A DNA stretch of 64,000 nucleotides. Source: Thermoflexales bacterium. Its GTDB lineage: Bacteria > Chloroflexota > Anaerolineae > Fen-1058. The notes below the pieces were generated by a model. That model was given only the letters and a program-made list of their open reading frames with translations, searched no databases and was not told the origin of the DNA. The translations under genes and the position numbers were made by a program. The stretch is from contig JBGSPW010000064.1 in the NCBI GenBank assembly GCA_041738395.1, forward strand, positions 1 to 64,000, in the 5' to 3' direction. Positions 2 to 62,633 of this stretch are shown in pieces (positions within the stretch are counted from its first letter, which is position 1; every line of letters begins with the position of its first letter).

Positions 2-3000
2 TTCACGGTCTACGGCGATCAAACGCTGGCGAAAAAACTGGTGGTTGCCGGCAAGAAAGCCGATCTGATCATTGGCGGGCACAGTCATACCAACTTGACC
101 AGTGCGACGGTTGTCAGCGGCACCACGGTCGTGCAAGCCTACTACGCCGGGCGCAAGGTCGGCCGCGCTGATCTGACCATCGACACGACCGCCCATACCA
201 CGCTGGTCGCATGGCAGCCAATCACGATCAGCACCTCGGGCCCCGTCGATGCACCCACCGAGGCTCGAGTCAATATGTGGGCCAACGACCCAGCCTATCA
301 AGCGCAGATCAATCAAGTAATCGGCTTCAGCAACATCGATCTGGTCCGCGACTACAACGGCGACAACTTCGTCGGCGATCTGGTCAACGACTCGATCTAC
401 AACGACCTGAACACCGATGCGGATCCAGCCAATGACGTGGACATGGTGTTCAACAACGCGGGCGGCCTACGCACCGACATCACCGACACCGTCCATCCCT
501 TCACGCTGACGTATGGTCTGCTCTTCAGCGAATTGCCGTTCGGCAATGCGACCCTCGTCGGCGACATGACCGGCGCGCAGATTGTCGATCTGCTCAACCA
601 GAGCGCCACCTTATTCAAGGGCGCGCTGCAGGTGGGCGGCGTCCGCTACAAGTTCTATCGCTACAGCGATGCGCTCCCCGGCCCGCAACCGTACGCGTGG
701 GGCGCGTACAGCATCACTGTCAAGAACCGCAGCACGAGCCTCTACGAACCACTGGTGATGACCAAGACGTACAGCGTAGGCACCAATGAATTCATGGCCC
801 CGGCTGGGAACGACGGCTTCGTTCCGTTCAAGTATGTCACCAACTACTCGTACTACGGCGACATGCTTGACGGCGTCAATCGCTGGGTGAGCAAGATGTA
901 CAGCACCACCCTGTCAGCTTACAACGGCCCGAACGGTGACGGCCTGCTGGATGGCCGCATCACGCGCAACGGCACCGACACCTACGGTGGAACCCCCACC
1001 GAAGTTGTGCCAGTCACCATGCTCCACCACAATGACTCGCACGGCCGACTGCTCGACTACCTGTATCTCACAATGCAGCCTGGCTACACCCGCCTGGCGA
1101 CCCTCATCAAGCAAGAGCGCCAACACAATCCAAGCCGCACACTCTTGCTTAGCGGTGGCGATCAGATTCAGGGCGATGCCATGATGGCCTTCTACAAAGC
1201 GGCCTTCACCGGTAAAGGCGCTGATGGAACAACGCTGCCGGTTACGTTAACCGTGAATCCGATGATGGCGGCGATGAACTCCCTGGGCTATGATGCCATG
1301 ACGCTGGGCAATCACGAGTTCAACTATGGCAGCACCATCTTCACGGGCACGCTGGGGCAGGCAACCTTCCCGCTGCTGCAAGCGAATCTCTATGATACAG
1401 GTGCCTACGGTATTGCCGCTGTCGGCGTCAAGCCGTACATCACCAAGACCCTGCCCGGTCCGGTCGGCAACATCAATCTGGCCGTGCTCGGCATTGGCAA
1501 CCACCGCGTGCCGCAGTACGAACTGCCCAGCAACATCCCCGGCTTGACGTTCACTAACCCCATCACCGAAGCGCAGAATCGCGCTCCGGCGTTGAAGGCC
1601 GCCAATGATGTCGTCGTCGCGCTGACGCACATTGGGTTCACGACCATCCCGGGTAGTGGCGAAGTTGATACCAACGTCGATACCAACCTCGCGGCGCAAA
1701 CCACTGGCATCGACGCCATCGTCGGCGCCCACAGTCACACGAACCCGACCACGGGGCAAGATCCTTATAAGTTCCTGCCGACGTACGTGGGCGCGCCGGA
1801 CAACACCCCGGTGATCATCAACCAGGCCTATCGCTATAACACCTTCTTGGGTGAAGTCGTGTTAGGCTTGCTGCCGAAGGCGGGCAGCGGCTACGAAGTG
1901 GTGTCTCGCGCCGGCCGCGACATCGCCAACACCACGAGCATACCGGAGGATTCAGCGACCAAGGCAATCGTGCAGCCCTATGACGATTTCCTGGTCACGT
2001 ACAAGATGCGCGTCGTCGGTCAGACCACCGTTCCGATCGACACGCTGCTGGCTTTCACGCAAGAGACGAACGGCGCAAACTTGCAGGCTGACGCTTCGCT
2101 GTGGAAGTTAAACTCGGCGCTGTCGCCCACGGTCCAGATCGACTTCCACTTGTCGGGCGCGACAACCAGTGCGAAGATCGCCGCCTCCGCGACCTCCACC
2201 AGCCTGGTCACACTGACGGTCAATGATATGTATTCCTTGATACCGTATGAGAATTCCCTAGTGGTATTCCGCCTGAATGGCCCACAGATCAAGACAATCC
2301 TTGAGCGCGGGTACCGGAACTATTACTACTACAAGTACGTCCCCGGGTACGGCGGGTACTCCTACTACCCGACCTGTGTGCTCGACATCAGCAAGGATGG
2401 GCAAATCACCTACTGGAATACTTATCCCAGCCTCCCGAACGGGAACAACGTTGCCAGTTTGACGTTCAACAACCGCACGATAGACTTCCTCAACGCGACG
2501 ACGTACTACACTGTCTCAACCGTCAACTACATCGCCGCCGGTTCGTGCAACTTCAACAACGACGGGGTGACGCTCTGGCCACTGGCCCAGATCGTGGCTG
2601 ACACGCAGTACTATGTACGCGATGCGGTGATCAACTACATTCCGGGTCAGACTCAGCCTATCGCGCCAGCGATCGAGGGACGATTAGTATTTGCGTCAGC
2701 CGTTCTCCCCAGCGGTATCAGCATCAGTGGCCCGACCACAGGTACCGTTGGCACCACTTACACATTCACTGCGACTGTCAGCCCGGTCACGGCGACAACG
2801 CCCATCACCTACGTGTGGCAGATCGTCGGCCAACCATCTGTGACGCATGTGGGTGGACTCACTGATACAGTTCTATTTGCTTGGCCGCCCGGCACGCAGG
2901 GCGCACAAACCGTCGACGTTTCGGCGAGCAATGCCGTGGGGACGATCACCGGCACACACACGATTATTCTTGGCCCACCCGTCAATACACTGCGCGTACG

Positions 3001-6000
3001 CGGCAACGAGCCCACCATGCTCGATCCGGCACTCGTGACCTACATCGACGAGTGGCGAGTCGCCCGTCAAACCTTCGAGGGGTTGACACGCTTGGACGAA
3101 AATCTTGAACCTCGTCCGGCGCTGGCCAGCGCGTGGAGTTACTCGCCAGATGCGCGTGTGTATACCTTCACGCTGCGCGAAGCATACTTCGCCAACGGAC
3201 GGCGCGTCGTGGCCGACGATGTAACGACCTCTTTCATGCGCGCCTTGTCGCCGACGATCAACGGCGGCAACCCGGCCGATTACGCTTCCATGCTCTACGA
3301 TATTCAGGGCGCGGCACAATATAACAGCGGCTCGATCACCGTGCCCGTCGGCATTCACGCGTTGGATGCGTCAACTGTCCGGTTCGATCTGGTCGATGTC
3401 ATGCCGCCGGGAGTGTTTCTCAAGAAGCTTACCCTGCCCATTGCGAGTCTCGTCCCCATCGAAGCAGTCAACGCCGGCGGTGTAAACTGGTGGCGTGACC
3501 CGGCGCACTATTTTGGCGCGGGGCCTTATCGGCTAACCGAGTGGCTATCCGGTTCACACATCTCGCTGATTGCCAATCCCCTCTATCTCGCCGGTAATCC
3601 GATCGGATATGGCGGCCAACTGGTGCCCGATGGTGTAACGATCTATTTCACGGATACAACGACGGCTCTGGCGGCCTTCCGCGCCGATCAGCTGGATATT
3701 GTTGAAGTTTCTTCCTCCGAGATGATGACGATTACAGCTGATCCACACCTCGCTAACAATCTGATCAGCGCGCCGGGAACGTGCACGTTCTGGTGGGCGA
3801 TGGATAACCAGACGGCGCCGTTCAATGGCGCAAACGGTCTGAAGCTGCGCCAGGCAATCGGGCACGCGCTCGACCGATCGGCCTTGGTGAGCGCGACGCT
3901 GAACAACATCGGGACCCCGGCCATCGGATTACTCCCACCATCGATCTACGGCTACAATCCCGCCTTGCAGGGTCTGCCCTTCAATCTCATTTCGGCCACT
4001 CAACGTTTAGCCGAGTCTGGCTATCTGGGCACGCCACAAATCATCCTGCGCACCGGCTTGAATCACCTGCCGAAAGCGCAAAACATTCACGATCAATTGC
4101 AAAACCATCTCGGCCTCAACATCGCCGTGCTGACCACGACTGTTTTTTCGGAGCGAGAATTACGCGGGTGGTGCGCCGATTATCCTGATCCAGAGAACTG
4201 GCTGCCCCCCCTGCTACGCAGTGATGCGACCTTCAATAGCGGTCACTATAACAATCCCATATTTGATGCTCTAGTCGATCAGGCCGGGCACACCATCACC
4301 GAGTCCGAACGATTGACGTTGTATCGTCAGGCGGAAGAGCTGGCGATGTCGGAAGGCGCGGTGATTCCTCTCTATCATTTTCAGTCCACTCTGCTCCAGT
4401 CACCGCGCGTCACCGGGCCGCTTATCGCCAACTGGCAATGGGTGTTGCCTTTTGACATGCTGCGCATCCAGGCGGGGCGCGGCGCGGCGGAAGACCTCCC
4501 TCCTGGCACGACCATCACCGATACCACCCCGATCGCCGCTTCCGCCAACTGGTATCGTGTCCCGGTCGCTCAACCCGGTTCGACATTGACCGTCACACTC
4601 GGCGAACTAGGGGAGGATTTTGATCTGTATCTGTTCGCGCCCGAAGTGGACGAAGAAACCGGCCAGCTGCGCGACATCGGGCAGATTGCCGACCTGGGGC
4701 AAATGGGCAACATCGGCCAAATGGGCAACATCGGCCAGATGGGCAACATCGGCGACTTGTTGGATCTGGGGCAAATGGGCAATATCGGACAGATGGGGAA
4801 CATCGGCCAGATGGGCAACATCGGCCAGATGGGGAATATCGGGCAAATGGGCAACATTGGCCAGATGGGGAACATCGGCACGTTGGTCGGCGTCTCCGCC
4901 AATCCGTTCACGGCCACCGAACAAATCGCTCACGATGTCCACGAACTGGCAGGGAATTATTACATCGCCGTCGCCAGCCAGTCGGCCAGTGCAGCGAGCA
5001 CCCCCTACTCGCTGACCGCCTGGATCGCCCCGCCGACACAGGCCTATCTGCCGATTACAGAGACTGTGCCGATCACGTTTACGACACCGCCCACCGACAC
5101 CGCGATCAACACGCTCATCCTGGTCAATCCGTCACGGCTCAATCGATTCTATCCGAGTGGCGAGACGATCACTTCCACGCAATTGATCAGCCGGCTGGAG
5201 ATGCTGCGAGCGCATCCGAACGTCAACGGTGAGATCATTTCGCTCGACGCGTATCCGGCGGTTGTGGCCGCCTACGATCGTTGGGATCAGCAGCCGCTCA
5301 ATCCGATGGCGGCCAATCACGTGGCGATGACGATCAAATCGCTGCTCTATCGCTTGGCTCCGGCCTATCCCAATTGGCAGTATCTCGTCATCGTCGGCGA
5401 TGATCGCGCTATTCCACAACGTCGTCTGGTCGATGAGGCGCTCATCGCCAATGAACGCACGTATGCCGGTGTGGCCTACACGCCCATCATTTCTTCGTCA
5501 TTGGGCGCGCGCTATCTCTTGAGTGATGATTATTACGCGGGCCTGCTGCCCCTGCCCTGGCGCGGGCGCGAGTTGTATCTGCCGCAAATCAGCAGCGGGC
5601 GACTGGTGGAGTCGCCGAGTGAGATCGTGGCGGCCCTCAACGCGTACCTGGCGCAGCCGGTCATCACCCCGACCAATGCGCTGGTGACCGGCTATGATTT
5701 CTTGATCGATGAAGCGAACGCCATCAGCGCGACGTTGCGCGCCGCCGGCCTGAATGACCTGCGCGGCTTGATCAGCAATGTGTGGACGGATAGCGATCTG
5801 CGCACGCAACTCTTTGGGCCGATCGCGCCTGCACTGAATTCGATCAACTCCCACTTCCAACACTATCGCCTCTTCCCGACCAACCCCTCCGGCCAGCTGT
5901 TTGCCACCGAGATCACGGCGACCACCAACTACACCGGCGCACTCTTCTTTTCGGTTGGCTGCCATTCGGGGTTGAATGTGCCCGATACGGATTCGTTCAA

Positions 6001-7825
6001 TCTTCAGACCGGCACCGATTGGCCGCAAGCCTTCCTGCGGCGCGGCGCAACGTTGATCGGCAATACGGGCTACGGCTACGGCGATTCTGATCTGGTGGCT
6101 TATTCCGAGCGCCTGATGTTGAACTTCACGCAGGCATTAGGCGATCATGCGCAAGGCGCGCCAACGGTGGGGCGCGCGCTCTTGCAAGCAAAACAGGGTT
6201 ACTACAACAGCGCCTCGGCCGGCTCGCTCAGCACCTATGATGAGAAGGTGCTGGCGGAAACAACGTTGTACGGCTTGCCCATGTTGCAAATCAATCTACC
6301 GACAGTCACGACAGCTGCTCAACCCGATCGGCCGCAGCACGTTCAAGCGCAAGACGTCTTCACCACGCGCGTGGCCTTGCCGCTGGCGTTTACGCCGCAC
6401 GCGGGCAGCCTGGGCACGTTCTACACGATCGTAGGCGAGGAGGACGCGCACGCGGCCGGCGCGCGCCCCATCGAGCCACGTACCAATCGCGACGTGCACG
6501 TCGCCGATACAATCGCGCATGGCGCGCTGCTGCTAGGCGGCACTTTCACGCAGCAGCCCATCGATCCCTTCATTTCGCGCGTCGTCACGGACGAGTTGTA
6601 TCTGCCGGACGAACCGCACTTTCCAACCGAAGCCTGGTATCCCATGCAAATGAGCGTGGTCAATCGTTTCCTGGCGATTGACGGCCAATCTCATGAGCGG
6701 CTCGTCGTCGTACCTGGCCAATTCAAGGCCACGGCCGACATCCCGGCAACCAGCGGCCTGCAACGCTTATACACTTGGCTGGATTACGAAGTCTATCATG
6801 CACCCTTCACGATGACCGACTTTATCGCGCCAAGCATCTGGAATGTGGAAGCGTACAGCACTACCAGTGCTCTGTTGTTCCGCGCGCTCGTCACCGACGA
6901 TCAATACGATCTGCGGCGCGTGGTCATTTTGTATCGCCCCTTGTCGATCAACACGTGGAGCCGCGCCGATCTGGCTTATGATCCGCTGACACATTACGCC
7001 TTCGCCAGTGTGCCGCCGTTAGCGGAAGACTTTGAATACTTCGTGCAGGCGGTCGATCAGGCGGGCAACGTCGCGCTCGCGCTCGATCACGGCAACTCCT
7101 TCCAGCAGTACTCTACGGTCGAAGCACGGCTTGAGGCAACCACGACTACCGTGACCGAAAATGCGGGTAGCGCGATTGTGGCCGTGATGTTGAGCACACC
7201 GCCCATCATCACCACCATGATCGATTATGCCACGCTCGGCGGTACGGCTCACGCCGGATCAGACTACGCGGCCGCCAGCGGTACCTTGATCTTCTCGCCG
7301 GGGATGACACGCACCACGATCAACCTGACGCTGCTGAACGACAACGTCTACGAACTCGGCGAAAACTTCACCCTCAAGTTGAGCAATCCCGTCAACGCCA
7401 GTCTGGGTGATCCCGTCCTGCTCACGTTCATGATCCTCGACGACGATGCGCTGCCGGCAGTCGCCTTTGCTTCTAGTGCAGCGACCGTCTCGGAAGCCGG
7501 CGGCAGCGCCATCATCACCGTGACGCTCGATCATCCCTCGGTGTTGACGACCACCGTCGCGTATGCCACCACCGACGGCATGGCCAATGCCGGCAGCGAC
7601 TACATCGCGACCAGTGGTACGCTGACTTTTGCGCCGCTGACCACCAGCTCAACCTTCGCGGTTGGCATTGTTAATGACGCCAAGCATGAAGTGACGGAAA
7701 CACTGACCGTGAACTTAAGCAATCCTGGCAACGCAACGTTGGGCGTACCGAATCAATTGACCCTCTTCATCGGCGATGATGATGCCGCAGGATCCAAAGT
7801 CTATTTGCCGTTGATCAGGAGATAA
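2..7825 (+). CDS. Giant multidomain secreted protein, 5'-partial (open at the window start). Domains in order: two metallophosphatase/5'-nucleotidase modules, a PKD-like domain, a family-5 solute-binding (peptide SBP) domain, a PPC domain with tandem GQMGNI repeats, a clan-CD (C25/gingipain-like) peptidase-like domain and three Calx-beta domains.
   Basis: Continuous ORF with no upstream stop in frame back to nt 2. Metallophosphatase motifs GGHSHT, GNHEFNYG and GAHSHTN. SBP_bac_5-like stretch (FEGLTRLDENLEPRPALASAWS...). PPC-like stretch (YRVPVAQPGSTLTVTLGELGEDFDLYLF...NYYIAVAS). Cys/His peptidase-like motifs (INSHFQHY, FFSVGCHSG). C-terminal repeats (GSDYxAxSGTLxFxPG) typical of Calx-beta. 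Confidence 0.7.
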   Translation, partial: FTVYGDQTLAKKLVVAGKKADLIIGGHSHTNLTSATVVSGTTVVQAYYAGRKVGRADLTIDTTAHTTLVAWQPITISTSGPVDAPTEARVNMWANDPAYQAQINQVIGFSNIDLVRDYNGDNFVGDLVNDSIYNDLNTDADPANDVDMVFNNAGGLRTDITDTVHPFTLTYGLLFSELPFGNATLVGDMTGAQIVDLLNQSATLFKGALQVGGVRYKFYRYSDALPGPQPYAWGAYSITVKNRSTSLYEPLVMTKTYSVGTNEFMAPAGNDGFVPFKYVTNYSYYGDMLDGVNRWVSKMYSTTLSAYNGPNGDGLLDGRITRNGTDTYGGTPTEVVPVTMLHHNDSHGRLLDYLYLTMQPGYTRLATLIKQERQHNPSRTLLLSGGDQIQGDAMMAFYKAAFTGKGADGTTLPVTLTVNPMMAAMNSLGYDAMTLGNHEFNYGSTIFTGTLGQATFPLLQANLYDTGAYGIAAVGVKPYITKTLPGPVGNINLAVLGIGNHRVPQYELPSNIPGLTFTNPITEAQNRAPALKAANDVVVALTHIGFTTIPGSGEVDTNVDTNLAAQTTGIDAIVGAHSHTNPTTGQDPYKFLPTYVGAPDNTPVIINQAYRYNTFLGEVVLGLLPKAGSGYEVVSRAGRDIANTTSIPEDSATKAIVQPYDDFLVTYKMRVVGQTTVPIDTLLAFTQETNGANLQADASLWKLNSALSPTVQIDFHLSGATTSAKIAASATSTSLVTLTVNDMYSLIPYENSLVVFRLNGPQIKTILERGYRNYYYYKYVPGYGGYSYYPTCVLDISKDGQITYWNTYPSLPNGNNVASLTFNNRTIDFLNATTYYTVSTVNYIAAGSCNFNNDGVTLWPLAQIVADTQYYVRDAVINYIPGQTQPIAPAIEGRLVFASAVLPSGISISGPTTGTVGTTYTFTATVSPVTATTPITYVWQIVGQPSVTHVGGLTDTVLFAWPPGTQGAQTVDVSASNAVGTITGTHTIILGPPVNTLRVRGNEPTMLDPALVTYIDEWRVARQTFEGLTRLDENLEPRPALASAWSYSPDARVYTFTLREAYFANGRRVVADDVTTSFMRALSPTINGGNPADYASMLYDIQGAAQYNSGSITVPVGIHALDASTVRFDLVDVMPPGVFLKKLTLPIASLVPIEAVNAGGVNWWRDPAHYFGAGPYRLTEWLSGSHISLIANPLYLAGNPIGYGGQLVPDGVTIYFTDTTTALAAFRADQLDIVEVSSSEMMTITADPHLANNLISAPGTCTFWWAMDNQTAPFNGANGLKLRQAIGHALDRSALVSATLNNIGTPAIGLLPPSIYGYNPALQGLPFNLISATQRLAESGYLGTPQIILRTGLNHLPKAQNIHDQLQNHLGLNIAVLTTTVFSERELRGWCADYPDPENWLPPLLRSDATFNSGHYNNPIFDALVDQAGHTITESERLTLYRQAEELAMSEGAVIPLYHFQSTLLQSPRVTGPLIANWQWVLPFDMLRIQAGRGAAEDLPPGTTITDTTPIAASANWYRVPVAQPGSTLTVTLGELGEDFDLYLFAPEVDEETGQLRDIGQIADLGQMGNIGQMGNIGQMGNIGDLLDLGQMGNIGQMGNIGQMGNIGQMGNIGQMGNIGQMGNIGTLVGVSANPFTATEQIAHDVHELAGNYYIAVASQSASAASTPYSLTAWIAPPTQAYLPITETVPITFTTPPTDTAINTLILVNPSRLNRFYPSGETITSTQLISRLEMLRAHPNVNGEIISLDAYPAVVAAYDRWDQQPLNPMAANHVAMTIKSLLYRLAPAYPNWQYLVIVGDDRAIPQRRLVDEALIANERTYAGVAYTPIISSSLGARYLLSDDYYAGLLPLPWRGRELYLPQISSGRLVESPSEIVAALNAYLAQPVITPTNALVTGYDFLIDEANAISATLRAAGLNDLRGLISNVWTDSDLRTQLFGPIAPALNSINSHFQHYRLFPTNPSGQLFATEITATTNYTGALFFSVGCHSGLNVPDTDSFNLQTGTDWPQAFLRRGATLIGNTGYGYGDSDLVAYSERLMLNFTQALGDHAQGAPTVGRALLQAKQGYYNSASAGSLSTYDEKVLAETTLYGLPMLQINLPTVTTAAQPDRPQHVQAQDVFTTRVALPLAFTPHAGSLGTFYTIVGEEDAHAAGARPIEPRTNRDVHVADTIAHGALLLGGTFTQQPIDPFISRVVTDELYLPDEPHFPTEAWYPMQMSVVNRFLAIDGQSHERLVVVPGQFKATADIPATSGLQRLYTWLDYEVYHAPFTMTDFIAPSIWNVEAYSTTSALLFRALVTDDQYDLRRVVILYRPLSINTWSRADLAYDPLTHYAFASVPPLAEDFEYFVQAVDQAGNVALALDHGNSFQQYSTVEARLEATTTTVTENAGSAIVAVMLSTPPIITTMIDYATLGGTAHAGSDYAAASGTLIFSPGMTRTTINLTLLNDNVYELGENFTLKLSNPVNASLGDPVLLTFMILDDDALPAVAFASSAATVSEAGGSAIITVTLDHPSVLTTTVAYATTDGMANAGSDYIATSGTLTFAPLTTSSTFAVGIVNDAKHEVTETLTVNLSNPGNATLGVPNQLTLFIGDDDAAGSKVYLPLIRR
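4672..4880 (+). repeat. About ten copies of an 18-bp in-frame tandem repeat (unit GGCCAGATGGGCAACATC, encoding GQMGNI), with one interruption, inside the giant protein.
   Basis: Direct reading of nt 4672-4880. Units differ only at third codon positions. Confidence 0.9.
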
Positions 7826-8531: not shown

Positions 8532-9563
8532 ATGAACATTGTGGCCTTAGCAGGCGGCGTGGGTGGAGCAAAGTTGGCGCAGGGACTCACCCTCACCCCA
8601 GTCCTCTCCCTTGAAGGGAGAGGGAGTTTGACGATCATCGTCAACACGGGCGATGATTTTGAATGGCACGGGCTAACCATCTGCCCCGATCTCGATACAG
8701 TGACGTACACGCTGGGTGGATGGGCAAACACCGTTACTGGCTGGGGTGTGGCGGGCGATACGTTCGAGGCGATCGGTGCGCTGCAGCGGCTGGGCATCGA
8801 GCCGTGGTTCAAGATCGGCGATCGAGATTTGGCGACACATGTGTATCGCACTGAATTGCTGCGCCAGGGTCAGACCTTGACCGAAGTCACGCGCCGCATC
8901 ACCCGCGCCCTTGGCATCGAGGCAACGATCCTGCCGATGACGGATGATCGCTTGCGGACGATGATAGACACCGATCAAGGCGTGTTGGAATTTCAAGAAT
9001 ATTTCGTGCGGCGGCAGTGGCAGCCGATCATTCGCCGCATCTTCTTCGACGGTGCTGAGACGGCCCGCGCTACCCCGCAGGTCAGCAGCGCGTTGGCGCA
9101 AGCCGATGCCATCCTCATCGCTCCGTCGAATCCGTTTGTGAGCGTGGAACCGATCTTGAGCCTCACCCCCCTACCCCCTCTCCCGAAATCGTCCTTCGAC
9201 TCCGCTTCGCTCCGCTCACGCCGTACCCGCGAAGCGGCGGCGCGCTGGGCGGGAGGCGGAGTTCGGGCGAGGGGGCCGGGGGGGAGGCTTGCCGTGTCGC
9301 CCATCGTCGGCGGGCAGGCCCTCAAAGGCCCCGCGGCCAAGATGTTCCGCGAACTGGGTGTGGAACCATCGGCCTTTGCCGTGGCACAGCATTACCACGG
9401 TCTCGTCACCCACTTCGTGCTCGATCAACTCGACGCCGATCAAGAAAGTGCGATACAATCGCTGGGCATGAAAACGCTGGTGACGAATACGATCATGCCG
9501 TCGGTGGAAGATCGCGTGCGACTCGCTACAGAAGTGGTAGAATTCGTAAAACGTAATACGTAA
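8532..9563 (+). CDS. cofD: 2-phospho-L-lactate transferase (CofD/FbiA) for F420 biosynthesis. It carries an in-frame insertion of about 130 nt made of a palindromic repeat element.
   Basis: MNIVALAGGVGGAKLAQGL...IIVNTGDDFEWHGLTICPDLDTVTYTLGG is the canonical CofD N-terminus. An RBS precedes the ATG at 8532. The insert spans 9159-9289. Confidence 0.85.
   Translation: MNIVALAGGVGGAKLAQGLTLTPVLSLEGRGSLTIIVNTGDDFEWHGLTICPDLDTVTYTLGGWANTVTGWGVAGDTFEAIGALQRLGIEPWFKIGDRDLATHVYRTELLRQGQTLTEVTRRITRALGIEATILPMTDDRLRTMIDTDQGVLEFQEYFVRRQWQPIIRRIFFDGAETARATPQVSSALAQADAILIAPSNPFVSVEPILSLTPLPPLPKSSFDSASLRSRRTREAAARWAGGGVRARGPGGRLAVSPIVGGQALKGPAAKMFRELGVEPSAFAVAQHYHGLVTHFVLDQLDADQESAIQSLGMKTLVTNTIMPSVEDRVRLATEVVEFVKRNT
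9159..9289. repeat. GC-rich nested palindromic element (copy 1), inserted in-frame within cofD. Its core is shared with 40624-40766.
   Basis: Core cttcgactccgcttcgctccgctcacgccgtacccgcgaagcggcggcgcgctgggcgg is about 90% identical to 40689-40752. Flanking arms are inverted: agcctcaccccc versus gggggggaggct. Confidence 0.75.
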
Positions 9564-9598
9564 AACGTAACACCGCGCCTTACGTTTCACGTTTTATC
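9544..9598. repeat. GTAAAACGTAA/TTACGTTTCACG hairpin element (copy 1), overlapping the cofD stop. It is probably a terminator or REP-like element.
   Basis: cgtaaaacgtaatacgtaaaacgtaa...ttacgtttcacgtttt. A second copy lies at 62565-62633. Confidence 0.6.
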
Positions 9599-9607
9599 CT
9601 TCACACC

Positions 9608-15592: not shown

Positions 15593-15653
15593 AGAAACCG
15601 GGTTTCTACCGTTCGGATGGAATCAAGGTCTGGAATGTAGAAACCCGGTTTCT
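15593..15653. repeat. AGAAACCGGGTTTCT inverted-repeat hairpin element, locus A.
   Basis: Arms agaaaccgggtttct and agaaacccggtttct are exact reverse complements, separated by about 31 nt. Confidence 0.85.
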
Positions 15654-17046: not shown

Positions 17047-17108
17047 AGAAACCGGGTTTCTCCATTTTCAGAGGAATGGAACGCTTAGCGTGGAGAAACC
17101 CGGTTTCT
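17047..17108. repeat. AGAAACCGGGTTTCT inverted-repeat hairpin element, locus B.
   Basis: Same arms as locus A with a roughly 32-nt loop. It lies upstream of the LCP gene. Confidence 0.85.
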
Positions 17109-18961: not shown

Positions 18962-19175
18962 GACTAGTCTGAAAATGCTCACAGCCCTCGTTCCCGAGGG
19001 CGTTCCCCGCAGGCGGGGCGCGAGCGCGGAGCGTTTTCAGGCTTTGTGCTGAATGCCGTTCATGGGGTCTGATCTGAAAATGCTCACAGCCCTCGTCCCC
19101 GAGGGCGTTTCCCGCAGACGGGGCGCGAGCGCGGAGTGTTGTTAGGGGCGGGGATGAACGCCGTTCAGGCTAACT
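18962..19175. repeat. Two tandem copies of a roughly 106-nt structured, hairpin-rich element.
   Basis: ctgaaaatgctcacagccctcgttcccgagggcgttccccgcaggcggggcgcgagcgcggagcgttttcag repeats at about 92% identity. Each copy is closed by ctgaaaa/ttttcag and contains gccctcg...cgagggc and ccccgc..gcgggg stems. Confidence 0.85.
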
Positions 19176-39157: not shown

Positions 39158-40601
39158 CGGTTAATCCCCCTCTGTTGAGGGGATGAGCTTCCCCCCCTTG
39201 TGCGACGGAATAGCTTAACCCCTTCGCTTCCAGCATCGGTCGTGGATCAACCAGGTTCTTGTTCAACGCCGCTTTCTCCGGCACACCCAACGCCAGCGCC
39301 ATCAATTGCGTGAAGTACAACACCGGCAGTGGTTCGGCTAATTTCATCTGGAATTGGCGCGCGTCGAGATTCGAATGGCACATGGGGCACGCGACGGCGA
39401 TTGCATCGGCGCCCGCCTCACGCGCATGCTCGATCAGATCGCTGCTCAACTTCAGCACGATGTCCGGTCGCGTGAGTGAATGAGCCGCGCCGCAACACGA
39501 CGTCTTGTATGACCAATCGCGCACCTCGGCGCCCAGCGCCACCATCAACTGATCCATGTCCGTCGGATTTTCAGGATGCGGCGCTTCGGTGACTTGCGGC
39601 GGACGGGTAAGCAAACAGCCGTAGTAACACACCACGCGCAGGCCCGTCAACGGCTGCTTGACCGCCGCCGCGACCTGCTCTACGCCGATATGCCGGGTGA
39701 TCGATTCGATGAGAGTGGTGACCTGCACCGTGTCGCGGTACTCATAGCCGATCGTCTCACTCACCTCAGCGCGCTGTTCGTCGTTGTGCCGGATTTCGAA
39801 CTGCGCGGCTTTGTGGCGATTGAAGCAGGCCGCGCACGGCATCGTCACTTCCTTGAAGCCGCTCTGCTCGATGAGCGCGAGATTTTCGATCGGCAGGCGC
39901 AGGGCCGCCTCGGGATCGGTGCGATGCGCGGCCGAACTGCCGCAGCACACCCAGCCCCTCGGTTCGATCACGTTCAAGCCCAACGCTTCACACACGGCGC
40001 GCGTGGAGATATCAAATTCAGGCGCGGTGGAATGTAGCGAACAACCGGGATAGTAGGCGACGGCCTCCGTCGCACCGGCGACCGGTTTGGCCCGGTGCGG
40101 CATGCGTGTGGGATGCGGCAGCAAAGAGATTTTATGCTTGCGCAGCATCTTCACGCCCAGGTCCATGTCGCCCAAAATGTTGCGCGTGCGGAGCTTCATC
40201 TCGGCCATCAAGCCCAGTTCATACGCGCGGCCCCACAACTGCACCTCGCGCATGAACGCGACATTGAAGGTATTCACCTCGGGCACTTGCGGCTTGATGC
40301 CACGCGCCCTGGCCTCGCGCGTGAGGAACTCCATAATCGCCGTGATGTCCAATCCTTGTGGACAACGTGTCGTACAAGTCTGGCACGACGCGCACAGCCA
40401 CGGCGTCTGGGAATGCAGCGCCACATCTTCCTGCCCCAGTTGCAAGGCGCGCATCACCTGATTCGGCTGCCAATCGAAGAATTCAGACACAGGGCAGCCA
40501 CTGGTGCACTTCACGCACTGATAACACAGAAAGACATTCTGCCCGGTTTCGTCTTGCACACGTCGCGCAAGCTCAGAATTGACTGGCGTTGCTTCGTCCA
40601 T
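39144..40601 (-). CDS. hdrD: HdrC-HdrB fusion (HdrD/GlpC-like) Fe-S protein with two [4Fe-4S] ferredoxin motifs and two CCG domains.
   Basis: CYQCVKCTSGCP and CASCQTCTTRCP motifs. CCG motifs VCCGSSAAH and SCCGAAHSL. AGGAGG RBS before the ATG at 40601. The upstream Met codons are encoded by the repeat element. Confidence 0.8.
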   Translation of the reverse strand: MDEATPVNSELARRVQDETGQNVFLCYQCVKCTSGCPVSEFFDWQPNQVMRALQLGQEDVALHSQTPWLCASCQTCTTRCPQGLDITAIMEFLTREARARGIKPQVPEVNTFNVAFMREVQLWGRAYELGLMAEMKLRTRNILGDMDLGVKMLRKHKISLLPHPTRMPHRAKPVAGATEAVAYYPGCSLHSTAPEFDISTRAVCEALGLNVIEPRGWVCCGSSAAHRTDPEAALRLPIENLALIEQSGFKEVTMPCAACFNRHKAAQFEIRHNDEQRAEVSETIGYEYRDTVQVTTLIESITRHIGVEQVAAAVKQPLTGLRVVCYYGCLLTRPPQVTEAPHPENPTDMDQLMVALGAEVRDWSYKTSCCGAAHSLTRPDIVLKLSSDLIEHAREAGADAIAVACPMCHSNLDARQFQMKLAEPLPVLYFTQLMALALGVPEKAALNKNLVDPRPMLEAKGLSYSVAQGGEAHPLNRGGLTDVYP

Positions 40602-40623
40602 ATGCGCCTCCTGATTCATCAAC

Positions 40624-40766
40624 GTCATTGCGAGCATCTTTTCGCGAAGCAATCTCAGGCTCGATTAGCGGGGATTGCTTCGTCGCATTCTTCGACTTCG
40701 CTGCGCTCCGCTCACGCCGTATCCGCAAAGCGGCGGCGCGCCGGGCGGAACGCTCCTCGCAATGAC
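40624..40766. repeat. GC-rich nested palindromic element (copy 2) between hdrCB and metF.
   Basis: Perfect 11-bp terminal inverted repeats (gtcattgcgag/ctcgcaatgac). Inner inverted repeat gcgaagcaatc/gattgcttcg. Core shared with 9192-9255. Confidence 0.8.
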
Positions 40767-40776
40767 GGCCCTACCA

Positions 40777-41787
40777 CTACACGATCGGTCGGGGCAGCAA
40801 GCCCGCGCCTTCCACGATCGGCTTGACGGCTTCTTCCCACTCGATCGCCATGATGTGCACCCCGGCCACGCCTTCAATCTCGCGCAGCTGTTGGATCAGT
40901 TCGATGCAAATTTTCATGCCTTCGGCCTGCCACGCACCCGATCGGGCTTTCTTGTCTTCCTTGGTCAGCTCGTCTTTCGACTTGTTCGCCCACGGCGCAC
41001 CGGCTTGCGTCATGCGCTCGATGAGTGGATCGGGGATCCGCAGGCCCGGCACGTTGTCTTTCATGTAGCGCGCCATCGTCGGGCTTTTGAGCGGCCCGAC
41101 CCCCGCCAGGAGGTAGACTTTTTCGTGCAGGCCCAGTTCACGCACCTTCGCCATGAAGGTCTTGAAGCCGTCGATGTCGTAGATGAGCTGCGTCTGAATG
41201 AAGCTCGCACCCGCCTGCACTTTCTTGGCGAGCCGATACGGGCGAAAGTCGATCGGGCTGGCGAAGGGCGACTCCGCAGCTCCGACGAAGAAGCGCGGCT
41301 CTTGTCCCTTGATCGCTTCACCGCACTGGAAGGCGTGCTGATCGCGCAGGGCCGTCACCATCTGCACCATCTGGATCGAATCCATGTCGAAGACGTTCTT
41401 CGCATTGGGATGGTTGCCAAAGGTCTGATGATCGCCCGACAGGCACAGCAGGTTGCGCATGCCCAGCGCATACGCGCCCAGTAGATCGCTCTGCATGGCG
41501 AGACGATTGCGATCGCGGCACGTCATCTGGATGATAGGCTCCAATCCTTCCTGCACCACGAGCGTGCCCGCGCCGATGCTGGACATGCGCACGATGGCCG
41601 TCTGGTTGTCAGTGATGTTCACCGCATCGCAGTTGCCTTTGAGCAGTTTTGCTTTCTTCCGAATCACCTCGACATCAGCGTTTTGCGGCGGGCCAAGTTC
41701 ACCCGTGACGGCAAAGTGGCCGTTCTTCAACACCTTCTCCAGATTCGATCCAGACAGATAGCCGTTGCCGTTAGGTTGTGGAGTCAT
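40777..41787 (-). CDS. metF: Methylenetetrahydrofolate reductase MetF.
   Basis: MTPQPNGNGYLS...FAVTGELGPP...SIQMTCRD... matches the MTHFR fold. GGAGGCA RBS 5 nt before the ATG at 41787. Confidence 0.85.
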   Translation of the reverse strand: MTPQPNGNGYLSGSNLEKVLKNGHFAVTGELGPPQNADVEVIRKKAKLLKGNCDAVNITDNQTAIVRMSSIGAGTLVVQEGLEPIIQMTCRDRNRLAMQSDLLGAYALGMRNLLCLSGDHQTFGNHPNAKNVFDMDSIQMVQMVTALRDQHAFQCGEAIKGQEPRFFVGAAESPFASPIDFRPYRLAKKVQAGASFIQTQLIYDIDGFKTFMAKVRELGLHEKVYLLAGVGPLKSPTMARYMKDNVPGLRIPDPLIERMTQAGAPWANKSKDELTKEDKKARSGAWQAEGMKICIELIQQLREIEGVAGVHIMAIEWEEAVKPIVEGAGLLPRPIV

Positions 41788-41799
41788 CGATGCCTCCTG

Positions 41800-41872
41800 A
41801 ATTCGGAATGTGGAATGCGGAATACGGAATGCCCCATTCCGAGTTCCAAATTCTGCATTCCGAATTAATCTA
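41800..41872. repeat. Palindromic element built from GGAATG/CATTCC heptamer-like units in the metV-metF spacer.
   Basis: gaattcggaatgtggaatgcggaatacggaatgccccattccgag...cattccgaatt. Confidence 0.8.
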
Positions 41873-43936: not shown

Positions 43937-46900
43937 TTATCTGGTAGCTACAGTTTCTTTCACGGGCATGAATCGGCCCGATGGCTCCAACAACGCCTGC
44001 ACCTTCATCACCATCTGCGCATCCGTGTAGTGCATCAACTGAATCGCTTGCGCGGGACATTCGGCCACGCACGAGCCGCAACCCTGGCAGATCGCCGCTT
44101 CGATGTAGGCCGCACCCATAATGCTGCCCACGCCCGTCAAGTTCGCTTTGATCTTCGGCACGCCGAACGGGCAGATGCGCACGCACGTCAAGCAGCCGGT
44201 GCACTTCGCGTCATCCACTACTGCGACACGCCCACCCGCGACTAAAGACTCACGACTCAACACGCGCGCGGCGCGTGCGGCGGCGGCCTGCGCTTGAATC
44301 ATCGTCTCATCCAGCAGCTTCGGATAATGCGCCATACCCGCCATGAACACGCCATCGGATGCAAAATCGACCGGGCGCAGTTTGACGTGCGCTTCGAGGA
44401 AGAAGCCGTCGGCGTCGAGCGCGACTTTGAACAATTTCGCCACCTCGTGCGCATCGTCGCGTGGCACGACGGGCATGGACAGGACGACGAGATCGGGCTG
44501 CAGGGTGATGGTGCGCTGCAAGATGGAATCCCATGCTTGAACGACGATTGGGGAACTCGGAATTTGGAATTCGGAATTCGGATTGTTGATAATCACTTCC
44601 GGTTTATGATTGTCATCGTAGTGGACAAACAACACGCCACGTTCACGCGCGGTGGTATATATCCGTTCTTTGAAGCCATACGTCTGAATGTCTTTGTAGA
44701 GAATGACCACCTGCGCTGCGGGATTGAGTTCTTTGAATTGGATCGCGTTCTTGAGTGCGACGGTGCAGCAAATGCGGCTGCAGTATTTTTCCGCCGGGCC
44801 GACGCATTGGATCATGACGACTGAATGCGGAATGCGGAATGCGGAATGCGGAATGGAAAGCAACGACTCGAATTGCTGTTGAGTGATGATGTTCGGATGA
44901 GTGCCGAATCCATAATCCGGGCCGCGATATTCCTGTGCGCCTGTTGCTAGAATCGTGACGCCGTGCTGTATTTCTTGCATCTTGCATCCTACATCTTGCA
45001 TCTTGCATCCTGCATCTTGCTTCCCGCCTCTTGCATCCTGCGAAGCGTCCCCGTGGGATTGTATCTTGCTGATAAAATTGCCCATGAAGCCCGTCGTCGC
45101 TGCGACCTGGCTGTCGAGATAAACCGTGATGGAAGAGTTGTGCTCAACTTGATCAATCAGTTGCTTCAAGACGATTTGCGGATCTTGGGTCCCCTCTTCC
45201 ATCCCCCTCGCACGCGGGAGGGAAACCAGGACCCGCCGCAGATTGCCGCCGAGTTCATGCGCCTGCTCGACGAGATGAACGGGGAAGCCTTGATCGGCCA
45301 GCGACACAGCCGCGGTCATGCCGGCCGCGCCCCCGCCGACGATCAGGGCAGCGCGCTTCACCGGCACATCGATCAGGTGCTGCGGTTCAAGCAGCGCTGC
45401 GCGCGCCACCGCCATACGCACCAGGTCTTCAGCCTTCGCAGTGGCAACGTCCCAATCATGCGAATGAACCCACGAGCACTGATTGCGGATGTTCGCCATC
45501 TCGAACAGATAGGGATTCAAGCCGGCGTTGCGCAGGCAATCCTGAAACAGCGGCTGATGCGTCAAGGGAGTGCAGCTGGCCACCACCACGCGATTGAGAT
45601 GCTGCTCTTTGATCTGTTCGACGATGTGCTTGATGCTGTCTTGCGAGCACGCATACAAATTTGACTCGGCGTGAACCACGCCCGGCAGCGTCTTCGCATG
45701 GGCGGCAACCTGGGGCACATCGAGGAAGCCTGCGATATTCGAGCCGCAGTGGCACACAAACACGCCGATGCGCGGCTCTTCTTCGCGCACATCTCGCTCC
45801 GCTGGAAATTCCGGGCGCGTGGTCAACGCGAAGCGCGCCGTGCCGAGGCGTGTGGCAGCGGCGGCGGCGGCTCCGCTCGCTTCCACGACCGATTCAGGAA
45901 TATCCTTCGGTTCGCGGAACGGCCCGACGGCGTAGATGCCCGGTCGGCTAGTTTCCAACGGATTGAACTGCACCGTGTGACAGAAACCATATTCGTCGAG
46001 TTCGATCCCCAGGCGTTTGCCCAACGCGCGCACTGATTCGGAAATCTTCATACCGACGGATAACACGACCAGATCAAATTGTTCTTCGACAAGATCGAGT
46101 CCGGCGTCATTGCGAGGAGCGCTTCCTGAGCGGAGCAGAGCGTAGTCGAAGGACAGCGACGAAGCAATCTCCGGCTGTTCGGGACTGAGATTGCTTCGCA
46201 TCCTTCGACTACGCGGCGAACAGATGCCGCTCCACTCAGGACGCTCGCAATGACGGGCATCGGACTGATACCGAACGATCAGATTGTGAGTCTGTGGATT
46301 TTCATGCAGCTCGCTGATGCGACAGCGCGTGTAGTGAATACCGTACCGATCGCGCGCCCGTTCGAAGTAAGACCAGTAGCCCTTGCTGAACGCGCGCATG
46401 TCCATCATGAAGACCTGCACGTCCAGATCAGGTTGATGCTCTTTGGCGATCACTGCTTCTTTGGTCGCATACATGCAGCACACCGCCGAGCAGTAATCGT
46501 GCGTTTGATCGCGCGAGCCGACACATTGCAGGAAGGCAATCCGCTTTGGCGCTGCGCCATCCGATGGACGCCGTACCTGTCCCAGCGTCGGACCGGACGC
46601 CGACAACAACCGCTCGAATTGCAGCGCCGTGACCACGTTCGGATAACGACCGAAGCCATATTCGCGCGACAATGCCGCTTGATACACCTGATAGCCTGGA
46701 GCAAGGATGACAGCGCCGACGTCGATCTTTTCCTCGCGCGCGACCATGTTGTGATCGATCGCATCAACGCCGCAGGCATACACACACGCCAGGCACTCTG
46801 AGCAGATACCGCACTGCAGGCAGCGCTGCGCTTCGGCGCGGGCCTGCTGCTCGGTCAGCCCCAGCACCACCTCGCGGAAGCTGGTCACGCGTTCGGCCAT

Positions 46901-51542: not shown

Positions 51543-51986
51543 TTACTCACTTGCCTTTTCCTGCGCGCCGTTGAGCCTGAGCGGATTGGGACCCAGGCGT
51601 TCAATCTCCGCGGTCAACTCGGCGGCCGACCACGCGAACTGGCCGCCCATCGCCGATGACAGATTGATCATCTGCGCGCGGCGGCCTTCCAGACCGATCT
51701 CTTCCAGCAGCTTTTGCGCGTATTCAATTCGCCGGCGGGCGTTGAGATTACCTTCCAGGTAATGGCAGTCGCCTTCCAGTCAACCCGCCACCAGCACGCC
51801 ATCGGCGCCATCCTCAAAAGCGCGCAGCACATAGAGCACGTCGAGCTTGCCGGTGCACGGCAATTCGATCACCTTAATCGAGGTGGGATACTCCAGTCGC
51901 AGCGCACCGGCCAGATCGGCCGCGGCATACGCGCAGTAACGGCAGCAGAACGCGACAATTTCGGGATTGAAGTGGTCGGACGTCAT
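51543..51986 (-). CDS. mvhD: MvhD-family protein, second copy, with an in-frame TGA (51780-51782) at the conserved Cys position. Putative selenoprotein. Its ATG overlaps the hdrL2 stop codon (ATGA).
   Basis: ...ELPCTGKLDVLYVLRAFEDGADGVLVAG-[TGA]-LEGDCHYLEGNLNARRR... A hairpin (attaccttccaggtaat) lies at plus 51747-51763. Confidence 0.7.
51747..51763 (-). promoter_or_regulatory. Putative SECIS hairpin downstream of the mvhD copy-2 UGA.
   Basis: Same AUUACC-UGGAA-GGUAAU hairpin as in copy 1. It is conserved despite divergence in the flanking codons. Confidence 0.55.
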
Positions 51987-57654: not shown

Positions 57655-57773
57655 ATTCCTCACGGTAACGTGCTGTGTGGTTCGTTCATAACGAGTAATG
57701 AGTAACGAGTAATAGGACCATTGAGCCGGATCACACCGTTGCGATACGACCTTTACTCATTACTTGTTACTCG

Positions 57774-60700: not shown

Positions 60701-60926
60701 AACCATGATCGGGAGTGCCACGACATAGGACGCAATCGTGTTGGGGGAACATGTAACCGAGTTGGGCCACGCGGCCGCCCAGACAGGGCGTTTGTTCGAC
60801 GAGGTAAACCTTGAGGCCGGCATCAGCCAAATCGAGCGCAGCGCGCATTCCACTGATGCCGCCGCCAATAACCATGACCGCAGCAACCGGCGCTTTGCGA
60901 AGATGCCCTGCTCTAAAAGCGGACAT
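57774..60926 (-). CDS. hdrA: HdrA-like flavoprotein (1050 aa) with two FAD-binding modules and N- and C-terminal ferredoxin motifs.
   Basis: VIGGGISGMRAALDLADAGLKVYLVE. CIDCGRCAEVCP. WLQCVGSRDQ...CSSICCMYATKEA. Second module IIGGGVSGMTAALAIA. C-terminal CVGCLTCTRTCP...CQGCGTCTGECP. Confidence 0.8.
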   Translation of the reverse strand: MSAFRAGHLRKAPVAAVMVIGGGISGMRAALDLADAGLKVYLVEQTPCLGGRVAQLGYMFPQHDCVLCRGTPDHGYGCTRPSISPAYSRHNQHPNIEILTDTQLIDVAGQAGDFTISLRQEPRYIDVARCIDCGRCAEVCPIEMPDEYQQRLTMRKAAYKVAARAAPDAYVIDRGPYCDACRKCADICPSHAIDLDEQPRLLTVEVGAIILAVGFQVYDPTPLAELGYGRYSNVLHAMQYERLASRSGPTEGLITRRSDGRPPRSIAWLQCVGSRDQTNTFCSSICCMYATKEAILAKQRLGEEVDCCIFIMDERAFNKEYHSYFATAREQHGIRYVRCRVSNVHEDPATRDLLLRYADATGQQREERFETVVLATGLQPPDSAPLLAELLGIDLNEHGFCQTDKFTPLQTSRPGVFVCGAFSSPKEIVETIIDASGAAAEVMRLLNDQLRTHVYTREWPFLSADGLPPERDVTDEPPRVGVFACSCGSTIGGVINLPALVQRAAQWPNVVLAEAIDFACFPETLAQIQTRIQDANLNRVVIAACSNRTHEALFQRTLRLTGLNPYLLELVNLREQCSRVHQQQQALANRKAQELLRVAVGRVLAAQPVHKDVNQCQPAALIIGGGVSGMTAALAIADSGYDVHLVERTEMLGGNLANLYYVAEGYDPQRLLRDLVNRVRAHRRIVVHMRTEVTRHIGHVGNFQAELRMKYPDGTLDEFHIAHGVTIVATGGRETREHPLLDLPHVITQHELEEKIIHRPEEIAALKDVVMIQCVRPDGMPEYCSRVCCTNALKNAIRIKLFNPACRVSVLYKNIVTYGFREEYYTEARRHGIVFVRFTDDEPPVVALLGAAEGDRLVVRVRDLTLNRWLTLPADLVPLSMAIASSEAAPELAALLRVPITGEGFFQEAQLKLRPMDFMREGIFLAGMAHYPKFVEESISHALAAAARALTLLSQGSLYLGGVVAWVDPQKCVGCLTCTRTCPFAIPQIIQQEGRSGVGGLGGAAYIDPAQCQGCGTCTGECPANAIQLINYTDEQMMLKTIGGLGSWAA

Positions 60927-62567: not shown

Positions 62568-62633
62568 AACGTAAAGCGTAAAACGTAAGGGGTTTTGTTA
62601 CGCACTACGCTTTACGTTTCACGTTTCACGCAT
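62565..62633. repeat. GTAAAACGTAA/TTACGTTTCACG hairpin element, copy 2.
   Basis: gtaaaacgtaaagcgtaaaacgtaa...ctttacgtttcacgtttcacg. Related to 9544-9598. Confidence 0.6.

Follow-up and report, generated by a model that had tools for sequence, protein, structure and literature searches.

The cofD insert and its host enzyme

The 64,000-nt stretch analysed here (the window), from a Chloroflexota (Anaerolineae-like) genome, holds cofD, the gene for the F420-biosynthesis enzyme 2-phospho-L-lactate transferase (CofD), together with metF, hdrCB and a set of HdrA-like genes. We find three palindromic elements in these 64 kb, one intergenic, 9 nt past the metF stop codon, and two intragenic, in cofD and in an HdrA-like gene, so that two genes of the window carry in-frame palindromes (Table 1). 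The predicted CofD protein matches the Pfam CofD family (3.6e-41) with a match that ends at aa 212, its best solved relative is M. mazei CofD (PDB 3C3D, 2.8e-57), and synteny comparison shows that the gene order nitroreductase-cofD-cofC-luciferase-like is conserved in orthologues.

Table 1. Palindromic elements, their parts and the flanking gene features in the window. CDS, coding sequence; REP, repetitive extragenic palindromic sequence; pLDDT, predicted local distance difference test; K-unit, the 67-nt unit described in the text.
Feature	Position	Strand	Evidence or remark
cofD (2-phospho-L-lactate transferase) CDS, 343 aa	8532-9563	+	Hosts two palindromic inserts; Pfam, 3C3D match, synteny
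Perfect 9-bp hairpin (CCTCTCCCT tga AGGGAGAGG), CofD loop 1	8603-8623	+	Within 8589-8633, encoding TLTPVLSLEGRGSLT
Composite nested palindrome, CofD loop 2 (aa 210-253)	9159-9289	+	Arm complementarity, fold z = -5.9, pLDDT
Left outer arm of older hairpin (AGCCTCACCCCCCTACCCCCTCTCCCGAAA)	9159-9188	+	Kept in L003 around a different interior
K-unit, 67 nt, CGTCCTTCGACT...GGCGGGAGG	9190-9256	+	Covariance-model match 9186-9262, 84 bits
Innermost 32-nt hairpin (CGCCGTACCCGCGAAGCGGCGGCGCGCTGGGC), REP-sized	9219-9250	+	Present or absent as a block
Right outer arm (TTCGGGCGAGGGGGCCGGGGGGGAGGCT)	9262-9289	+	Arm pairing, orthologue comparison
Probable true hdrCB start: ATG 40601-40599, AGGAGG 40612-40607	40599-40612	-	Sequence and open reading frame list; Pfam CCG, Fer4
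Palindromic element, 145 nt, metF-hdrCB spacer, perfect 12-nt ends CGTCATTGCGAG/CTCGCAATGACG	40623-40767		Fold z = -3.7
K-unit in right half of spacer element	40686-40752	+	Covariance-model match 40682-40758, 87.5 bits; blastn
metF stop codon (methylenetetrahydrofolate reductase domain)	40777-40779	-	9 nt upstream of spacer element on mRNA strand
Palindromic element, 151 nt, same 12-nt ends as spacer element	46105-46255	-	In HdrA-like gene 43937-48724; fold z = -9.9

The cofD insert is a GC-rich nested palindrome of 131 nt between the sequences for the EPIL and AVSPIVGG motifs, much as a preliminary description of this DNA, which reported an interruption of about 130 nt that keeps the frame, had proposed. 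Its outer arms (9159-9177/9271-9289) are 79% complementary and its inner arms (9199-9223/9238-9262) 72%. Folded as single-stranded DNA it reaches -50.6 kcal/mol vs -34.1 +/- 2.8 kcal/mol for dinucleotide shuffles (z = -5.9), and 0 of 200 shuffles do as well. The insert is in frame, encodes the peptide SLTPLPPLPKSSFDSASLRSRRTREAAARWAGGGVRARGPGGRL, and is without a stop codon in four of its six frames. The EPIL-to-AVSPIV linker is 44 aa long in the window protein, compared with 14 aa in 3C3D; the insert-free homologues P0108, P0118 and P0119 already have linkers of 13-19 aa, so the net gain is about 30 aa and not the 44 residues originally counted as added.

An AlphaFold model of the window protein, computed with a 42-sequence alignment as input, has a mean pLDDT of 80.7, with values below 50 at aa 219-250, within the insert, and at two short loops, while the helix (206-211) and strand (253-257) beside the insert are modelled with confidence. 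The model matches 3C3D in Foldseek with E = 3e-26 and a template-modelling (TM) score of 0.85 normalised to the crystal structure, and all invariant residues of the 42-sequence alignment are present. Because the fold is matched and the invariant residues are kept, the insert is most simply viewed as a predicted disordered surface excursion that the enzyme tolerates, if translated.

Orthologues resolve the insert into layers. In L003 and L004 (78% amino acid identity), which come from separate assemblies (NCBI and JGI, respectively) and are identical here, the outer arms are conserved as AGCCTCAYCCCCCTACCCCC...GGGGGCCGGGGGGKGAGG and the interior differs from that of the window, consisting of two other hairpins. 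In the L120 orthologue the hairpin is uninterrupted and reads CCCCCTCTCCCGAAAT-CCGCTTTTCG-ATTTCGGGAGAGGGGG; at the same position the window has CCCCCTCTCCCGAAAT, then 67 nt, then CGGAGTTCGGGCGAGGGGG. Compared with these orthologues, the 131-nt insert reads as a composite, an older hairpin common to L003 and L120 with a 67-nt CGTC-started unit in its loop. A further level is seen in the CofD proteins P0041 and P0043, whose loop is 11 aa shorter than that of P0091 at the position of the innermost 32-nt hairpin.

A 67-nt unit in unrelated genes, frames and orientations

The 67-nt unit, hereafter the K-unit, is what the cofD and spacer elements have in common. By blastn, cofD 9194-9252 and spacer 40690-40748 are 91.5% identical over 59 nt, close to the core of about 60 nt and 90% identity noted previously, and a 23-mer common to the two copies has two matches in the window vs none expected by chance. 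A covariance model (14 copies) finds exactly two K-units in the window, with the next match at 13 bits, and recovers all other copies. Scans of genome and metagenome collections with 21-23-mers from its core bring up about a dozen genuine K-units beyond the window, in Anaerolineae and Thermoflexales metagenome-assembled genomes and in environmental contigs.

The ends of the unit are sharply defined. In L001, L009 and L119 it runs from CGTCC to GGACG and is thus CGTC-tagged on both strands; the copy in the window cofD starts with CGTC (9190-9193) and has GAGG instead of GACG at its 3' end, and K-units nested in the 80-nt elements described below start with CATT or CATC, not CGTC. The unit is found in frame in four protein settings. 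It reads SLRSRRTREAAARWAGG in the window CofD, APLTPYPRSGGALGG in an NAD-dependent DNA ligase LigA (L009), where the Pfam adenylation domain is split at the insert, and LRSAHAVPAKRRRAGR in a HemW-like radical-SAM protein (P0123), where it interrupts YEISNWA...SRHNLVYW; this last case came from a concatenated six-peptide K-unit query that gave three matches, one of them useful. In the CofD of L119 it occupies the same loop as in the window, inside a different outer hairpin and in the opposite orientation, where it reads RRAAASRTRRER. Because all three forward frames occur, along with the reverse strand, the K-unit is repeated as DNA rather than as a peptide module.

The spacer element and the start of hdrCB

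The metF-hdrCB spacer holds an element whose inverted ends lie at 40623-40634 (CGTCATTGCGAG) and 40756-40767 (CTCGCAATGACG). These ends are perfect, as had been described, although they measure 12 nt rather than 11 and the element 145 nt rather than 143. It had also been taken for a second copy of the cofD insert, and here the comparison leads elsewhere, as the K-unit is all that the two have in common. By its sequence, the spacer element is a member of a wider family of palindromes of about 80 nt with CGTCATTGCGAG ends that happens to carry a K-unit, which in this copy and in L012, L015 and L020 separates GAGATTGCTTCG from the right end. Nothing resembling a terminator or a promoter was found at the spacer element.

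The element also bears on gene calling. The longest hdrCB open reading frame (ORF) begins at a TTG (40652-40650) within the element, giving an N-terminal extension that reads MLREKMLAMTLMN. The ATG at 40601-40599, 5 nt downstream of an AGGAGG, is the likelier start, and the TTG, like the ATGs in the element end, is then a spurious upstream start, in keeping with the false extension suspected from the outset.

A third element in an HdrA-like gene

The third element lies on the minus strand in frame within a gene for a 1595-aa HdrA-like flavoprotein/ferredoxin and encodes the peptide RHCERPEWSG...SAPRND. Alignment places this peptide opposite a clean in-frame gap in both window paralogues, and the spacing of the paralogous repeat changes across the element from 8007 to 7860, a difference of 147 nt. 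One arm of the element is homologous to the nested insert of the spacer element without its innermost 32 nt (CGCCGTAYCCGCRAAGCGGCGGCGCGCYGGGC). In each filled/empty pair, then, the extra block occupies the loop of a pre-existing hairpin, which gives three levels of nesting.

The three HdrA-like paralogues (43937-48724, 51983-56674 and 57774-60926; 1595, 1563 and 1050 aa) belong to repeated gene clusters, spaced about 8 kb and 5.7 kb apart, beside hdrCB and metF; relative to the first, the second is 60% identical and the third 48%. Tandem repeats of heptanucleotides (GAATGCG, TCTTGCA, GCCTCCT) occur within these paralogues and the 5' part of the metF ORF, at 44823-44855, 44973-45041, 55484-55534, 52899-52930 and 41790-41866; they appear in the paralogue alignment as short lineage-specific peptides, e.g., DAGCKMQDVGCKMQ and SIPHSAFRIPHS, and at 41800-41866 heptamers build a hairpin with 32-nt arms.

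A wider family of 80-nt palindromes

Plain elements of 80-82 nt are intergenic in L003 and L006, where they have the form CGTCATTGCGAG-x-CGACGAAGCAATCTC-loop-GAGATTGCTTCG-x'-CTCGCAATGACG and are without a K-unit. Each half of such an element consists of CGTC-ATTGCGAG...CGAAGCAAT followed by a tail of 3 nt; the halves are turned towards each other, with a variable centre between them. The 8-nt ATTGCGAG, with its AT start, follows the tag, and its partner CTCGCAAT lies 58-127 nt away, in units of 67-151 nt. Neither half folds better than shuffles as a self-folding REP monomer (z about 0).

A single search of viral contigs, with the two 12-nt ends required to lie 45-75 nt apart, yielded 97 loci with 117 distinct elements, in which the inner motif CGAAGCAATCC / GGATTGCTTCG is conserved even though it lay outside the search pattern. 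Methylosinus and Aulosira plasmids also carry the 80-nt element, and with the viral-contig matches this shows that the palindrome crosses phyla. In the wider family 71 of 96 elements have CCA as the tail after GCAAT; the tail is CTC in the window and in the Chloroflexota copies. Tails vary together between the two arms, with 24 full matches, compared with 8.4 on average and at most 18 after shuffling, and CGAA and CGCG variants occur in matched as well as mixed arm pairs. In CGTCATTGCGAG-ended elements the RHCE...RND phase is open in both orientations.

Beside the copies on viral contigs, the ORFs are terminase, portal and tail genes of phage or gene-transfer-agent-like type rather than transposases. 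Among 22 open stretches that span such copies, 21 look like spurious GC-rich ORFs and were set aside; only that of L102 is real. On this Mu-like phage contig a CGTCATTGCGAG-ended element (3128-3204) and, about 100 nt downstream, a second partial copy stand between portal (PF06074) and Mu F (PF04233) domains in one continuous 719-aa ORF; either the element has mediated a gene fusion or the ORF is a trap for annotation. In L028, L030, L035, L057 and others the 80-nt element lies between terminase-like and portal-like genes, in apparent head modules of alphaproteobacterial gene-transfer agents or prophages. In L055 (8929-9092) the apical loop of a CGTCATTGCGAG-ended element is expanded by five tandem copies of CCCAGACTGCTTATGG, so inserts of other kinds can also be accommodated at the centre of these palindromes.

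Two hypervariable loops in CofD homologues

A survey of 120 CofD homologues (55-100% identity) reveals two sites that are hypervariable in both length and sequence, one after AQGL (loop 1) and one after EPIL (loop 2), which between them hold at least three types of repeat. The CHSE...RND type (DNA TGTCATTCCGAG...CTCGGAATGACA, confirmed in L119) occupies loop 1 in 27 of the 120, the KHSERS...SAQ type loop 2 in 12, and a Pro/Ser...GEG type, from CCCTCTCC/GGAGAGGG hairpins, is present in 48; in the most distant homologues the loops are short and plain. The hairpin in loop 1 of the window CofD is by itself not above chance (fold z = -1.7). Close relatives carry different palindromic inserts at loop 2 rather than the same segment as ordinary coding sequence. 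Together with the insert-free homologues this makes the insertion specific to its lineage, and the existence of other copies of the unit points the same way as regards its nature as a repeat.

Two observations concern the surroundings of cofD. In some relatives, as in L005 (11780-12139) and at the P0062 locus, cofC is separated from the luciferase-like gene by a PF05635 gene (23S rRNA intervening-sequence protein, Avd-like); the window lacks this insertion, and the PF05635 gene may be another small mobile gene. Hairpins of heptamer repeats (ACGTAAA and TAACGAG types) stand at gene ends at 9541-9600, 57689-57776 and 62564-62622; the one 3' of cofD overlaps the final codons (VKRNT*), and orthologues end differently (VKRKA, VTSNE, VMSDE).

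Interpretation and alternatives

We interpret these elements as non-autonomous, hairpin-forming dispersed DNA repeats of the REP or Rickettsia palindromic element (RPE) kind, a reading to which we assign a probability of about 0.72. It builds on the earlier suggestion of a REP-like family tolerated inside a biosynthetic gene, to which we add the third element in the HdrA-like gene and the K-units in LigA, the HemW-like protein and another CofD protein. The distribution of the elements suggests that they are mobile. There would be two layers, a widespread palindrome of about 80 nt and a rarer 67-nt CGTC-started unit with a 32-nt inner hairpin, and new copies would preferentially enter the single-stranded loop of an existing hairpin, with palindromes growing by nesting: in cofD the 67-nt unit would have entered the apical loop of the older hairpin, and in the spacer one half of the 80-nt element. 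The units may be moved or copied as single-stranded hairpins, probably via a hairpin-directed enzyme acting in trans. Copies that survive in genes would be those in a tolerant surface loop, stop-free and with a length divisible by three, and such survival is easy because GC-rich palindromes are open in most frames. The cofD insert would be transcribed and translated as a disordered loop with the enzyme fold intact, while the spacer copy would form an intercistronic hairpin like a classical REP, with the ATG and TTG codons in its ends able to mislead gene callers on hdrCB.

Several observations weigh against this interpretation. Insertion is not formally separable from deletion of smaller blocks; the K-unit is low-copy, with only about 15 found in the public genomes and metagenomes covered by exact-word scans; the window holds only three elements; and it is uncertain whether they can be described as paired REP monomers, because the halves fold no better than shuffles. 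No transposase was found for these elements, and comparison of filled and empty sites gave no target-site duplication at 40623-40767, at 46105-46255 or at the K-unit. L006, an insert-free relative, does have a gene (3206-3853) for a Y1 transposase like the REP-associated tyrosine transposases (RAYTs; RRLPHW...NHVHVL), with CCGACTTTAGTCGG-type hairpins on both sides, and used as a tblastn query it finds no homologue in the window or the other loci (about 1.2 Mb); gene and hairpins look like a REP-RAYT module unrelated to the cofD and spacer elements. No parent insertion sequence with the same ends was noticed in the window or the 120 loci, where no systematic search was made.

Searches for a known family were likewise negative. 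Rfam gave only two tRNAs and chance-level miRNA matches for the whole window (gathering thresholds) and for 9100-9350 (by E-value). A protein search with the 50-aa peptide of the HdrA-like insert found no shared words, and full HMMER only TPR/satellite-like false positives. The terminal sequences meet only primer coincidences in the searchable literature, and the element sequence is absent from the text and supplements of PMC3733652. An intein, an intron or translational bypass was considered and is unlikely: the inserts are open and in frame, no Rfam intron family matches, and at 15-50 aa they are far too short for an intein.

A stronger form of the dispersed-repeat interpretation, which we regard as speculative and probably wrong though with a real chance of being right, holds that CGTC-started units target hairpin loops specifically, each settled palindrome becoming a landing pad for more, so that an enzyme builds protein segments in a self-reinforcing way. 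If true, it would explain at least three unrelated repeat types in the same two CofD loops across the Anaerolineae-like clade and the entry of the K-unit into CofD loop 2 at least twice, in opposite orientations, and it could point to the missing mobilisation machinery of CGTC-type repeats.

The best surviving rival, to which we give a slightly smaller chance than to loop targeting, dispenses with transposition and a dedicated enzyme altogether: the palindromes would arise and grow in place by replication template-switching at hairpins (quasipalindrome correction) and exchange blocks by ectopic gene conversion between similar hairpins. The lack of a transposase and of target-site duplications fits this view, as does the fact that cofD and the spacer have a fragment and not a whole terminal-repeat element in common; the arms co-vary as though copied from one another, and the interior of the cofD hairpin is swapped relative to L003 within a total of 138 nt in both. 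What local switching would hardly produce is a K-unit in both orientations in different organisms, with sharp CGTCC...GGACG ends retained in LigA, in the HemW-like protein, in two CofD contexts and in intergenic DNA; gene conversion, for its part, would need a homologous landing pad.

We consider it improbable that the hairpins are domesticated and kept for an RNA or DNA role, whether mRNA stabilisation, metF-hdrCB processing or translational pausing in cofD. The spacer copy does lie 9 nt past the end of metF, with the hdrCB ribosome-binding site just downstream of it, a position typical of REPs between co-directional genes (PMC3733652), an L013 variant turns two stem G-C pairs into G-T, a change of the kind that RNA tolerates, and the CofD clade keeps some hairpin at both loops in more than 100 homologues. 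Yet there is no Rfam match and no terminator-like tail, the loop sequences are unrelated between lineages, insert-free CofDs exist, and the genes that carry the K-unit, like its positions in them, are unrelated. Two further readings, ordinary coding sequence specific to the lineage (an Arg/Pro/Gly-rich CofD loop with a function, its palindromy and spacer similarity being incidental) and an assembly artefact, are both effectively excluded: the frame is intact and the gene otherwise well conserved, but the insert folds far beyond chance, its core is 91.5% identical to non-coding DNA, other proteins read this DNA in three other frames or strands, AlphaFold shows no structure in it, and the two independent assembly sources, L003 and L004, carry an analogous insert identically.

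Other repeats in the window

Three further repeats lie elsewhere in the window. A perfect inverted repeat of 17-18 nt (AGAAACCGGGTTTCT...AGAAACCCGGTTTCT), with arms that are themselves palindromic, is present in two copies (15593-15653 and 17047-17108) and represents another small repeat family. An 18-nt tandem array of 12 copies (4642-4915) encodes a GQMGNI-like hexapeptide repeat in a 2594-aa ORF (41-7825), and at 18968-19167 an intergenic 105-nt unit rich in internal hairpins is duplicated in tandem (86% identity).

Comparison with known systems

The closest parallel in behaviour is with the RPEs. RPE-1 to RPE-10 are palindromes of about 100-150 nt found in frame in unrelated housekeeping genes (Ogata et al. 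2000, summarised in PMC10969869 and PMC3733652), where translation turns them into extra loops that the fold accommodates; they have no known dedicated transposase (PMC10969869, PMC3733652). Our elements are likewise in-frame palindromes in unrelated genes (CofD, HdrA-like, LigA, HemW-like), and the insert forms a low-confidence loop in an otherwise CofD-like model. The likeness is one of behaviour, and there are differences: the RPE host is an obligate intracellular alphaproteobacterium, whereas ours is a free-living member of the Chloroflexota; the window elements are modular and nested, unit inside hairpin inside hairpin; and RPEs are described with a conserved peptide frame, unlike the K-unit with its three frames and reverse strand.

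In sequence, the elements recall the CGTC-tagged REPs (Di Nocera, De Gregorio and Rocco 2013, PMC3733652), which have a CGTC tag, a stem starting with AT and a CCA tail, include Neisseria dRS3, are commonest in Alphaproteobacteria and have no known dedicated transposase. The same superfamily takes in RPE-4 and RPE-6 of R. conorii, which end in CGTC (PMC3733652). The published repeats are 20-40 nt long, with a stem of 8-9 bp and a loop of 4-5 nt, mostly form head-to-head dimers and lie mainly between co-directional or convergent genes near the upstream stop, with many copies to a genome (PMC3733652); intragenic CGTC-tagged and GTAG-tagged REPs and RPEs are documented, DNA ligase included (PMC3733652, PMC10969869). 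Elements 40623-40767 and 46105-46255 similarly start with CGTC and end with GACG, with AT following the tag, inverted pairing across a variable spacer and a gene-proximal position. On the other hand, a stem of 8-9 bp with a loop of 4-5 nt is missing, and only the 32-nt innermost hairpin is REP-sized; the pairing partner of ATTGCGAG is at the far end of an element of 80-150 nt (tail-to-tail), the halves failing to fold by themselves. The tail is CCA in most of the wider family and CTC in the window copies. PMC3733652 reports no CGTC repeats from Chloroflexi.

REPs mobilised by RAYTs (Y1/HUH), including bacterial interspersed mosaic elements (BIMEs) and REPINs (REP doublets forming hairpins), resemble the present elements in their hairpins, absence of target-site duplication, probable single-strand mechanism and dimers that form larger hairpins; they differ in that the tag here is CGTC and not GTAG and that no RAYT is linked, the RAYT-like gene of L006 standing beside unrelated repeats. 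MITEs (miniature transposable elements with inverted repeats) such as Correia, ERIC, RUP and Nezha are also small, with perfect inverted repeats at their ends, copies that now and then lie in frame within genes and a hairpin that is transcribed, in contrast to which the window elements are GC-rich and nested and show no target-site duplication. The GC-rich 'byp' inserts of Magnusiomyces mitochondria form hairpins within genes as well; the ribosome skips them, and they are free to be out of frame. Translation of the window inserts is favoured over skipping because every insert that we see is open and in frame. Coding palindromes in Nematomorpha mitochondria (PMC6649704), in that case organellar, similarly show hairpin inserts persisting in protein genes.

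The nested intragenic palindromic repeats of this Chloroflexota genome are thus a fresh example of a class already known, that of RPE-like and CGTC-REP-like repeats. They show that a free-living Chloroflexota lineage, too, has its housekeeping enzymes commonly colonised in frame, as is best known from Rickettsia; of about 55 window genes two are affected, those for CofD and a large HdrA-like flavoprotein. The effects on annotation include longer proteins, broken Pfam matches (CofD), false N-terminal extensions (HdrCB) and possible ORF fusion, and the filled/empty pairs, clean CGTCC...GGACG ends and nesting rule offer a handle on how CGTC-type repeats move.

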